DNA of 64,000 nucleotides from Escherichia coli (GCF_044647545.1 NZ_CP172818.1), one strand, 5' to 3'; shown: positions 37,057 to 42,087, numbered from the stretch's first letter. The notes: generated from the sequence alone by a model not told the origin. Numbers and translations are program-made.

Positions 37057-37149
37057 AGACCAAAGCAAATTTGAGAGATATCTTCTTCTGTCTTGCAACA
37101 GAAGAACAGAAAATCGGGCTTTTGCGCCTGAATATTGCGGAGAAAAAGC

Positions 37150-39684
37150 ATGGCCGGGAATGACCGCGAGCCAATTGGACGCAAAGGGAAACCGACGCGT
37201 CCGGTCAAACAAAAGGTAAGCCGTCGTCGTTACGAAGATGACGATGATTACGACGATTATGATGACTATGAGGATGAAGAACCGATGCCGCGCAAAGGTA
37301 AGGGCAAAGGCAAAGGGCGTAAGCCTCGTGGCAAACGCGGCTGGCTATGGCTGCTGCTAAAACTGGCTATCGTTTTTGCCGTGCTGATCGCCATTTACGG
37401 CGTTTATCTCGATCAAAAAATTCGCAGCCGTATTGATGGCAAGGTCTGGCAATTGCCCGCGGCAGTTTATGGCCGAATGGTCAACCTTGAGCCAGACATG
37501 ACCATCAGCAAGAACGAGATGGTGAAGCTGCTGGAGGCGACCCAGTATCGTCAGGTGTCGAAAATGACCCGTCCTGGCGAATTTACCGTGCAGGCCAACA
37601 GCATTGAGATGATCCGCCGTCCGTTTGATTTCCCGGACAGTAAAGAAGGGCAGGTGCGTGCACGTCTGACCTTTGATGGCGATCATCTGGCGACGATCGT
37701 CAATATGGAGAACAACCGTCAGTTCGGTTTCTTCCGTCTTGATCCGCGCCTGATCACTATGATCTCTTCACCAAACGGTGAGCAACGTCTGTTTGTGCCG
37801 CGCAGTGGTTTCCCGGATCTGCTGGTGGATACTTTGCTGGCAACAGAAGACCGTCATTTTTACGAGCATGATGGGATCAGTCTCTACTCCATCGGACGTG
37901 CGGTGCTGGCAAACCTGACCGCCGGACGCACGGTGCAGGGGGCGAGTACGCTGACGCAACAGCTGGTGAAAAACCTGTTCCTCTCCAGCGAGCGTTCTTA
38001 CTGGCGTAAAGCGAACGAAGCCTACATGGCGCTGATCATGGACGCGCGTTACAGCAAAGACCGTATTCTTGAGCTGTATATGAACGAGGTGTATCTCGGT
38101 CAGAGCGGCGACAACGAAATCCGCGGCTTCCCGCTGGCGAGCTTGTATTACTTTGGTCGCCCGGTAGAAGAATTGAGCCTCGATCAGCAGGCGCTGTTGG
38201 TGGGTATGGTGAAAGGGGCGTCCATCTACAACCCGTGGCGTAACCCGAAACTGGCGCTGGAGCGACGTAACCTGGTGCTACGTCTGCTGCAACAGCAACA
38301 GATTATTGATCAAGAACTCTATGACATGTTGAGTGCACGTCCGCTGGGTGTTCAGCCGCGCGGTGGGGTGATCTCTCCTCAGCCAGCCTTTATGCAACTG
38401 GTGCGTCAGGAGCTGCAGGCGAAATTAGGCGATAAGGTAAAAGATCTCTCCGGCGTGAAGATCTTCACTACCTTTGACTCGGTGGCCCAGGACGCGGCAG
38501 AAAAAGCCGCCGTGGAAGGCATTCCGGCACTGAAGAAACAGCGTAAGTTGAGCGATCTGGAAACCGCGATTGTGGTCGTCGACCGCTTTAGTGGTGAAGT
38601 TCGTGCGATGGTCGGTGGTTCTGAGCCGCAGTTTGCGGGCTACAACCGTGCGATGCAGGCGCGTCGTTCGATTGGTTCTCTTGCAAAACCAGCGACTTAT
38701 CTGACGGCCTTAAGCCAGCCGAAAATCTATCGCCTGAACACGTGGATTGCCGATGCGCCAATCGCGCTGCGTCAGCCGAATGGCCAGGTCTGGTCACCGC
38801 AGAACGATGACCGTCGTTATAGCGAAAGTGGCAGAGTGATGCTGGTGGATGCGTTGACCCGTTCGATGAACGTGCCGACGGTAAATCTGGGGATGGCGCT
38901 GGGGCTGCCTGCGGTTACGGAGACCTGGATTAAACTGGGCGTACCGAAAGATCAGCTGCATCCGGTTCCGGCGATGCTGCTGGGGGCGTTGAACTTAACG
39001 CCAATCGAAGTGGCGCAGGCATTCCAGACTATCGCCAGCGGCGGTAACCGTGCACCGCTTTCTGCGCTGCGTTCGGTAATTGCGGAAGATGGCAAAGTGC
39101 TGTATCAGAGCTTCCCGCAGGCGGAACGCGCGGTTCCGGCGCAGGCGGCGTATCTGACACTATGGACCATGCAGCAGGTGGTACAACGTGGTACGGGGCG
39201 TCAGCTTGGGGCGAAATACCCGAACCTGCATCTGGCAGGGAAAACAGGGACTACCAACAATAACGTAGATACCTGGTTTGCGGGCATTGACGGCAGCACG
39301 GTGACCATCACCTGGGTAGGCCGTGATAACAACCAGCCGACCAAACTGTATGGAGCCAGCGGGGCAATGTCGATTTATCAGCGTTATCTGGCTAACCAGA
39401 CGCCAACACCGCTGAATCTTGTTCCGCCAGAAGATATTGCAGATATGGGCGTGGACTACGACGGCAACTTTGTTTGCAGCGGTGGCATGCGTGTCTTGCC
39501 GGTCTGGACCAGCGATCCGCAATCGCTGTGCCAGCAGAGTGAGATTCAGCAGCAACCGTCAGGCAATCCGTTTGATCAGTCTTCTCAGCCGCAGCAACAA
39601 CCGCAACAGCAACCTGCTCAGCAAGAGCAGAAAGACAGCGACGGTGTAGCTGGTTGGATCAAGGATATGTTTGGTAGTAATTAA
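37150..39684 (+). CDS. mrcB: Penicillin-binding protein 1B (bifunctional glycosyltransferase/transpeptidase)
   Basis: ORF 37135..39684; start at ATG 37150 ([19 protein letters not shown]...); acidic D/Y-rich N-terminal tract, TM anchor, transpeptidase motifs; 844 aa. Confidence 0.93.
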
Positions 39685-39903: not shown

Positions 39904-42087
39904 ATGGCGCGTTCCAAAACTGCTCAGCCAAAACACTCACTGCGTAAAATCGCAGTTGTAGTAGCCACAGCGGTTAGCGGCATGTCTGTTTATGCACAGG
40001 CAGCGGTTGAACCGAAAGAAGACACTATCACCGTTACCGCTGCACCTGCGCCGCAAGAAAGCGCATGGGGGCCAGCTGCAACTATTGCGGCGAAGCACTC
40101 TGCTACTGCGACTAAAACGGATACACCAATTGAAAAAACGCCGCAGTCTATTTCGGTTGTGACAAATGAAGAGATGCAGATGCATCAATTTCAGTCTGTA
40201 AAAGAAGCATTAGGTTATACACCTGGCGTTACAGTTAGCAGTCGTGGTGCTTCTAATACATATGATTTTGTTATCATTCGTGGTTTCTCATCTGTTGGCC
40301 TGAATCAAAATAACTACCTTGATGGACTAAAACTTCAGGGCAACTTTTATAACGATGCTGTGATTGATCCTTACATGCTCGAGAGGGTTGAACTGATGCG
40401 TGGGCCGACGTCTGTTCTCTATGGAAAAAGTAATCCTGGTGGGATTATTTCTATGGTGAGTAAGCGCCCGACCACTGACCCCCTGAAAGAAATTCAGTTT
40501 AAAATGGGGACGGATAATCTGTTTCAGACCGGATTCGATTTCAGTGATGCGCTGGATGATAACGGTGAGTTCTCCTACCGTTTGACTGGCCTCGCTCGCT
40601 CAACAAACGAACAGCAGAAAAACTCTGAATCTCAGCGTTATACCATTGCTCCATCATTCTCATGGCGGCCGGACGACAAAACCAATTTAACTTTCCTGTC
40701 CTATTTCCAGAATGAACCAGAAACGGGTTATTACGGTTGGTTGCCGAAAGAGGGGACCGTTGAGCCATTGCCTAATGGTAAGCGTCTACCGACTGACTTC
40801 AATGAAGGTGCGTCGAATAATACATACTCCCGTAACCAGAAAATGGTGGGATATAGTTTTGAACATGGTTTTAATGACACCTTCACCGTGCGTCAGAATC
40901 TGCGTTTCAGTGAAATGAAAACCTCACAGAAAAGTGTTTATGGCCACAGGGATTGCCAGCGATGGTCATACCCTAAACCGCGGGACAGTGGTGGATAATG
41001 AGCGTCTACAAAACTTTAGCGTTGATACCCAACTTGAAAGTAAGTTTGCTACAGGTGACGTCGGGCATACTTTGCTGACAGGGGTAGACTTCATGCGTAT
41101 GCGCAATGATATCAATGCCAGCTTTGGATCTGCACCATCCATCGATCTTTATAACAAATACCATCCTGAATACTTTGCATTTGGTAGCGCAGAGCCATAC
41201 CAGATGAATGAAAGCAAACAAACAGGTATTTATGTTCAGGATCAGGCGGAATGGAATAAATGGGTATTCACTCTGGGGGGGCGCTACGATTGGTCTAAGC
41301 AAGCGACCAAAAACTCTTATACGCCGACTGAAGGTTATATTGAGCGCAATGATCATCAGTTCACCTGGCGCGGTGGTGTAAATTACTTATTCGATAATGG
41401 TATTTCACCTTACTTTAGCTATAGCCAGTCCTTTGAACCGAGTGCTTTCGATCTGGGAACAAGCAACCCGCGCGTTTCCTATAAGCCATCGAAAGGTGAA
41501 CAGTATGAAGCTGGCGTAAAATATGTTCCGAATGATATGCCGGTCGTTGTTACGGGCGCAGTCTATCAATTGACGAAAACAAATAACCTGACAGCAGACC
41601 CAACAAACCCCATTAGCGAAGTCCCGCAGGTGAGATTCGCGCTCGTGGTGTGGAACTTGAAGCAAAAGCGGCGTTAAATGCCAATATTAACTTGACGGCT
41701 TCTTATACCTACACCGATGCGGAATACACCAAAGACACCAATCTCAAAGGTAAAACTCCAGAACAAGTACCGAAGCATATGGCATCTCTCTGGGGGGATT
41801 ATACCTTCAATGAAGGGCCGTTTTCTGGTTTAACATTGGGAACAGGTGGTCGTTTTATTGGTTCCAGCTATGGTGATCCGGCGAACACTTTTAAAGTGGG
41901 TAGCGCAGCTGTAATGGATGCTGTTGTAAAATATGATCTGGCACGCTTTGGTATGGCGGGATCCAGCCTTGCTGTGAACGTCAACAATTTGCTCGATCGT
42001 GAGTATGTTGCCAGTTGCTTCCAGACCTATGGCTGCTTCTGGGGCGCAGAACGTCAGGTCGTTGCAACCGCAACCTTCCGTTTCTAA
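39904..42087 (+). pseudogene. fhuA: Ferrichrome outer membrane transporter / phage T1-T5-phi80 receptor FhuA, disrupted by two compensating 1-nt indels (apparent pseudogene or sequencing error)
   Basis: Three ORFs 39904..40998, 40934..41677, 41650..42087, each with clear FhuA homology; frames 1-2-1; switches near 40941..40950 and 41618..41632; total span is a multiple of 3 (727 codons). Confidence 0.65.

Follow-up and report, generated by a model that had tools for sequence, protein, structure and literature searches.

FhuA of Escherichia coli K-12 (b0150) is an established receptor, characterised both structurally and genetically, for phages T1, T5 and phi80, for colicin M and microcin J25, and for albomycin. 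The fhuA gene considered here lies in a stretch of 64,000 nucleotides (nt) from the E. coli record GCF_044647545.1 (NZ_CP172818.1), referred to below as the window, where the deposited sequence splits it over three reading frames. Its closest described relative is the intact gene for ferrichrome porin FhuA WP_022645191.1 (2190 bp, 729 amino acids (aa)), carried for example by FDAARGOS_497, MS6198, IMT16316 and WB61 and found at NZ_CP033850.1:2525998-2528187. That gene and its 1.5-kb flanks are nucleotide-identical to those of the window save for six insertion or deletion (indel) type events, and it has the same mrcB-fhuA-fhuCDB synteny. Relative to this allele, the copy in the window has a net deficit of 6 bp, spans three frames, and meets a stop after codon 364. 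We regard it as quite likely that this break is an artefact of reference-assisted assembly or consensus building and that it records no biological loss of the receptor.

Two more distant relatives frame the comparison. FhuA of Salmonella enterica (729 aa, the representative of a 90%-identity cluster) comes from another genus, is 94% identical to the intact allele without a single gap, and has the same short loop 4. In contrast, K-12 FhuA belongs to the same NCBIfam family (NF007465), occupies the same locus, and has the same plug-and-barrel layout, but its identity to the intact allele reaches only 77%. Its loop 4 is longer by 17 residues and includes a Cys pair that the intact allele lacks, and further length differences fall in segments assigned to loops 5, 7 and 8. 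Over residues 1-63 (189 nt of coding sequence) the intact allele and K-12 FhuA are the same, a hint that the allele may be a mosaic shared between genera. The locus itself is ordinary, and the allele class is shared with Salmonella and is present in 562 of 5,426 complete E. coli genomes. An initial annotation of the window had given its fhuA the full set of phage, bacteriocin and albomycin activities listed above. The list is right for K-12 FhuA; because of the 77% identity, the shorter loop 4, and the missing Cys pair, it is not simply transferable to the allele in the window.

The window as a whole is 99.9-100% identical to FDAARGOS_497, MS6198, IMT16316, WB61 and WP4-S18-ESBL-09, genomes that are probably of sequence type 648 (ST648). 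Its fhuA coordinates, along with those of the other features discussed below, are given in Table 1.

Table 1. Coordinates, in the 64-kb window, of the deposited fhuA gene, its frame segments, the six events that distinguish it from the intact allele, and private differences elsewhere.
Feature	Position	Strand	Remarks
fhuA, Salmonella-like allele class, deposited form	39904..42087	+	three frame segments, 2184 bp
Segment 1: signal peptide, plug, first third of barrel	39904..40998	+	364 aa; NF007465 positions 1-352
Segment 2: mid-barrel, +1 frame	40934..41677	+	245 aa product; NF007465 positions 348-573
Segment 3: C-terminal barrel, original frame again	41626..42087	+	NF007465 positions 582-726
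Event 1: +C, GGCCAC vs GGCAC	40943..40944	+	frame +1; the truncating frameshift
Event 2: -9 bp (CTGTTCGTG)	between 41309 and 41310	+	frame kept; TVRE -> K in middle frame
Event 3: complex, CTGTGGAGC>CTGGGAACAAGC	41455..41461	+	net +3, frame kept; W -> GT
Event 4: +C in C run, CCCC vs CCC	41608..41611	+	frame +1
Event 5: -C, GCGAAG vs GCGCAAG	after 41618	+	frame -1; compensates event 4
Event 6: -G, CCCGCAGG vs CCCGGCAGG	after 41625	+	frame -1; original frame restored
YadM-like fimbrial subunit gene, frameshifted	24760-25329	-	complex CCAATAGTTCCTGGG>CCAAATTACTTCCGGG at 25140-25148, net +1
1-nt deletion (T), private	462..463		aceF-lpdA spacer; 5 nt from end of K-12 homology
2-nt deletion (TG), private	11281..11282		between cueO and gcd; in 3-nt break between K-12 blocks (reference positions 12096/12100)
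Extra C, private	56032		between cdaR and yaeH; 1 nt from 21-nt K-12 insertion site
Complex 5-nt loss, private	62931..62932		rpsB-tsf spacer; 1 nt past K-12 block end (reference position 64031)
rpnC 3' end	20169..20330	+	garbled low-complexity repeat (GGGAAAAAGAAAAAGAAGAC); two homologous 3' ends collapsed into one

The initial annotation had described fhuA as read in frames 1-2-1, with two compensating single-base indels and a stop at 40996..40998, and the listing of open reading frames (ORFs) bears out both the frame order and the stop. Segment 1 keeps the true frame up to 40943 and then runs through 18 out-of-frame codons to the stop. The first usable start of segment 3 is a GTG at 41650, which opens an ORF of 145 aa (41650-42087). 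The three products align in order to the FhuA equivalog model NF007465, which supports the earlier statement that all three segments are FhuA. Their scores are 707, 355 and 291 bits, compared with 1405.6 bits over positions 1-726 for the intact allele. Membership in NF007465 is defined by a whole-protein score above the curated cut-off of 803 bits over the full model, and no single ORF in the window attains this, though the DNA is that of fhuA. The gene length is a multiple of 3, as had been noted, and the genomic setting is that of fhuA: mrcB ends at 39684, fhuC begins about 50 bp past 42087, and the order mrcB-fhuA-fhuC-fhuD-fhuB recurs in the annotated closest genomes. The mrcB ORF (37135-39684) is listed from a TTG five codons 5' of the annotated start (849 versus 844 aa), which is an effect of ORF listing and not a feature of the gene.

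Alignment to a reference fhuA had been proposed as a check on the two indels. Global alignment of the gene plus 1.5 kb on either side against WP_022645191.1 places the indels exactly. It shows six indel-type events, which fall between 40944 and 41625, and the 5.2-kb stretch is free of clean substitutions. The two switch points recognised earlier were rightly located: at 40943/40944 the window has one C too many (GG[C]CAC), and after 41625 it has one G too few (CCCG^GCAGG). Events 2, 3, 4 and 5 had been missed. Events 4 and 5 are 10 bp apart and jointly convert LAQ to ISE. Removal of C40944 and restoration of the G after 41625 produce one uninterrupted ORF of 727 codons, the very outcome that had been named as telling against a genuine double lesion, and relative to the intact allele this corrected ORF has the changes TVRE>K, W>GT and LAQ>ISE. 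The residues TVR, W and LAQ altered by events 2, 3 and 4+5 are conserved in S. enterica FhuA, whereas the Salmonella protein has Q in place of E471, the last residue replaced in TVRE>K.

When evaluating these events, we noted three features that are peculiar for a natural pseudogene. First, the events are private to this record. By megablast against the 5,426 complete E. coli genomes, 80 match the window fhuA at 99% identity or better, and the top matches listed, each 2190 bp long, all carry the annotation of an intact fhuA, WP_022645191.1. The 562 complete genomes that carry this allele class are without any of the six events. For the interval 40930-41640 the best identity among these 562 genomes is 97.5%, and the matches listed span 717-718 bp where the window has 711. 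Three of three metagenome contigs with this allele show the reference version at event 3, and the junction created by event 2 was not found in metagenome contigs or species-representative genomes. The exact 364-aa and 245-aa products were found in a single NCBI contig (4,499,902 bp) among approximately 15 billion proteins, and in no read-derived (Logan) assembly of that collection. With 4.69-5.31 Mb, all ST648-type chromosomes listed exceed this contig in length.

The 145-aa C-terminal ORF is also present in two ENA metagenome contigs that carry a split fhuA of this allele. Neither contig has any of the six events, and their splits have other causes. In one, the gene is interrupted by a 10-N scaffold gap and a duplicated CAAATA (contig positions 3914-3929); in the other, it is interrupted by a single G>T change. 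Because these causes differ, an identical truncated product is no proof of a shared mutation. A protein search for natural variants carrying QATKNSY or DLGTSN was uninformative, since the database holds one representative per 90%-identity cluster. Thus, across the 562 genomes, the three metagenome contigs and the two ENA contigs, the disruptions seen in the window are not reproduced in any other isolate or assembly.

Second, the differences are of an unusual kind. Counted against the best match for each third of the window, there are 12 private indel events and four isolated substitutions in 64 kb, and natural divergence consists mainly of substitutions. The substitutions (22234, 24048, 24052 and 25015) are confined to the yad fimbrial operon, where identity to K-12 is no more than 84-87%, and from 25149 to 56031 the window does not differ from its nearest genome outside the fhuA cluster. 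Of the 12 private indel events, six crowd into a 682-bp interval inside fhuA, which none of 200,000 random placements reproduced. The four isolated indels (462, 11281, 56032 and 62931) are all intergenic and each stands beside a hairpin; the loss at 62931 disrupts the palindrome GCTCGTACGAGC between rpsB and tsf. Given that 91.6% of the window is coding, random indels would all be intergenic with a chance of 5e-5.

Two further genes are affected. In the YadM-like fimbrial subunit gene, a complex change leaves two ORFs, of 85 and 64 aa; this change is absent from the 204 genomes carrying that allele. At the 3' end of rpnC, GGGAAAAAGAAAAAGAAGAC stands where repeats of the GAAGACAGGAGG type are expected, and the window has the single-copy structure of K-12, without 179 bp of a remnant present in the reference (21160-21339); FDAARGOS_497 retains this extra rpnC remnant as an ORF of 204 bp annotated as hypothetical. 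The earlier statement that about 55 neighbouring genes are intact therefore needs qualification for the YadM-like gene and rpnC, and stands insofar as no other coding sequence is hit by an indel.

Third, the private indels coincide with places where K-12 differs structurally from this lineage. Alignment of K-12 MG1655 to an ST648-type reference over the same region defines 51 structural-difference sites, and all private indels of the window are at such sites: 13 of the 51 are hit, and no indel lies elsewhere. As background, a structural-difference site lies within 5 nt for only 1.45% of positions. The four isolated indels lie 1-5 nt from such sites, a coincidence with a chance of about 4e-8 under uniform placement and of 1.5e-5 if placement is restricted to intergenic sequence. 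BLAST blocks between K-12 and the reference end at reference positions 1272, 12096, 42038 and 64031, and private indels are found at 1277, 12097, 42038 and 64032. The third of these is event 1 of fhuA, which is situated exactly at a block end, on the left edge of the loop-4 length difference.

The remaining fhuA events show the same association. The bases missing in event 2 lie inside a 16-nt K-12 gap relative to the window allele. A K-12 gap lies 8-10 nt from event 3, whose new bases form TGGGAA, the K-12 hexamer at the aligned position. Events 4 and 6 are 8 nt and 3 nt, respectively, from K-12 gaps; events 4-6 occupy an unalignable block, which we presume to encode loop 9, and events 4 and 6 lie near its edges. 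In the YadM-like gene, too, K-12 has a gap (3 nt) at the site of the change. No part of fhuA diverges more from K-12 than its middle, which has 65% protein identity compared with 85% and 79% in the flanking parts and holds 16 K-12 gaps in about 600 bp. Its variable segments would, in the K-12 loop numbering, correspond to extracellular loops 4, 7, 8 and 9. Furthermore, four of the seven private substituted bases (24048, 24052, 41456 and 41458) equal the K-12 base, where chance predicts one in three. Evolution has no reason to put private indels at the nucleotide where an unrelated lineage diverges.

These observations, in which discrepancies confined to one record are mostly indels and co-localise with the structural differences between K-12 and ST648-type genomes, are consistent with a simple scheme. 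A K-12-like E. coli helper sequence was probably involved in building the deposited consensus. It could have come in through reference-guided assembly, when a reference scaffold was used for local re-assembly and polishing, or with the reads of a second, K-12-like strain. Under such a procedure, single-base differences from the helper would be called correctly, and insertions, deletions and unalignable blocks relative to the helper would be stitched imprecisely. Helper bases would leak through now and then, and a lineage-specific insertion could be lost, as may have happened at rpnC. Because the middle of fhuA is rich in K-12 gaps, six small errors would have piled up there, and the coincidence of the isolated indels with K-12 breakpoints would explain why they avoid coding sequence, with no need for selection. 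For this reason we set aside purifying selection as the force that keeps the isolated indels out of genes, since the breakpoint coincidence explains the pattern better. Errors in reference-guided or reference-polished bacterial assemblies exhibit the same confinement to sites of structural difference from the helper, the same correct single-base calls and perhaps the same leaked bases and collapsed insertions. In contrast to the window, many reference-guided pipelines could not rebuild strongly divergent alleles almost perfectly. Most likely, the true fhuA of this presumably ST648-like strain is the intact, 729-codon, Salmonella-like allele WP_022645191.1, and we infer both that the underlying reads carry it and what type of pipeline was used.

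Several points weigh against this interpretation. Three of the seven private substituted bases (22234, 25015 and 25144) differ from the K-12 base, and 38 of the 51 structural-difference sites are free of errors. Events 2, 3 and 4+5 preserve the frame and lie in loop-coding segments, and real selection on a receptor would look alike. Moreover, the coincidence within fhuA is not independent evidence, as the loop segments are also the segments dense in K-12 gaps. It is unusual that a procedure should rebuild a FhuA of 77% identity to the helper nearly perfectly and yet fumble small gaps, and the pipeline itself is deduced from the pattern of differences, not from reads or an assembly record. In addition, a natural deletion by recombination could yield the same K-12-like structure at the 3' end of rpnC.

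The strongest competing explanation is a genuine pseudogene, in which an ST648-like isolate lost or remodelled its FhuA under pressure from phages, colicins or microcins. FhuA is a surface receptor, and its loops 4-11 contact the receptor-binding protein of phage T5 (bioRxiv 10.1101/2022.09.22.509047). Every fhuA event is in a hypervariable, loop-coding segment, three of the changes keep the reading frame, both disrupted genes (fhuA and the YadM-like gene) encode surface structures, and the absence of indels from all other coding sequences of the window likewise fits this view. The presumed order of events would be the loop changes TVRE>K, W>GT and LAQ>ISE, followed by a null frameshift at 40944, with the YadM-like gene lost in parallel.

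We nevertheless consider such a history unlikely. Six indels in 682 bp alongside zero substitutions over 31 kb (25149-56031) constitute an unnatural mutation spectrum, and the tally of 12 indels to four substitutions over 64 kb does not have the pattern of natural mutation plus selection. Once the stop at 40996 ends the gene, further changes beyond it, the loss of G at 41625 among them, are redundant and have no selective rationale; moreover, a pair of +1 and -1 events requires a frameshifted intermediate. Receptor selection does not account for the four intergenic indels at K-12 breakpoints, and some private sites carry K-12 bases. The changed residues are conserved as far as the gap-free Salmonella protein, and the events appear in no independent genome, metagenome or read-derived assembly searched. 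The full version of this scenario, in which all six events are real, so that three loops of a Salmonella-type FhuA were remodelled, the gene was then knocked out, and a Yad subunit was lost, has in our estimation a slim chance of being correct.

Generic low-quality sequence with no reference involved would also generate differences that are all indels. A poor read of about 700 bp, a gap-fill patch or an unpolished long-read stretch could be at fault: the cluster at 40944-41625 is about the length of one Sanger read, in several events a run of C or G gains or loses one base, and the isolated intergenic indels stand beside hairpins. However, random errors would not spare coding sequence in four of four cases, nor would they fall within 5 nt of sites of structural difference from K-12. 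Random error would not be expected to give a loss of 9 bp, a K-12-like TGGGAA or an rpnC end structured as in K-12, and the 64-kb window contains no ambiguous bases. We therefore judge this explanation to be very improbable. Two specific error types do not fit, as only two or three events lie near GATC or CCWGG, the methylation motifs at which nanopore errors would occur, and simple homopolymer errors of the 454 or Ion Torrent kind would not include 9-bp, 5-bp, 2-bp and complex changes.

A mixture of causes fares worst among the explanations weighed. The 9-bp loss, the net gain of 3 bp and LAQ>ISE might be real polymorphisms of a functional FhuA, with only 40944 and 41625 being errors. Fixing just these two positions does yield the uninterrupted 727-codon FhuA described above, and in-frame loop indels are the usual variation between fhuA alleles. 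Yet the in-frame events lie at K-12 gaps in the same way as the out-of-frame ones, event 3 has K-12 sequence, conservation of the altered residues extends to Salmonella, and no event is seen in the 562 genomes or the three metagenome contigs, all of which makes this combination extremely doubtful. Wholesale copying from the K-12 allele is at best partial, because event 3 and two yad bases are K-12-like and the other events are not.

Taken together, the privacy of the events, the excess of indels, and the coincidence with K-12 sites favour sequence error, which the initial annotation had flagged as an alternative, over the selected loss-of-function allele that it had preferred. Its biological reading of the fhuA break is probably wrong, and the break probably stands in the deposited sequence only. 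If the break were real, it would mean that a single lineage had been hit several times in a phage receptor, and the strain should then resist albomycin and the phages that depend on FhuA; if all six events were real, they would be the mark of recent and intense pressure from phages or bacteriocins, exerted in several steps, or of a local repair process prone to indels. On our preferred reading of an assembly or consensus artefact, frameshifts in the variable surface genes of this record are best left out of counts of pseudogenes and receptor-loss alleles in studies of phage-host interaction or of the pangenome. The same diagnostic may be reused elsewhere: where the private indels of a public genome fall, to the nucleotide, on sites at which it differs structurally from a common reference, they point to a reference-assisted consensus.

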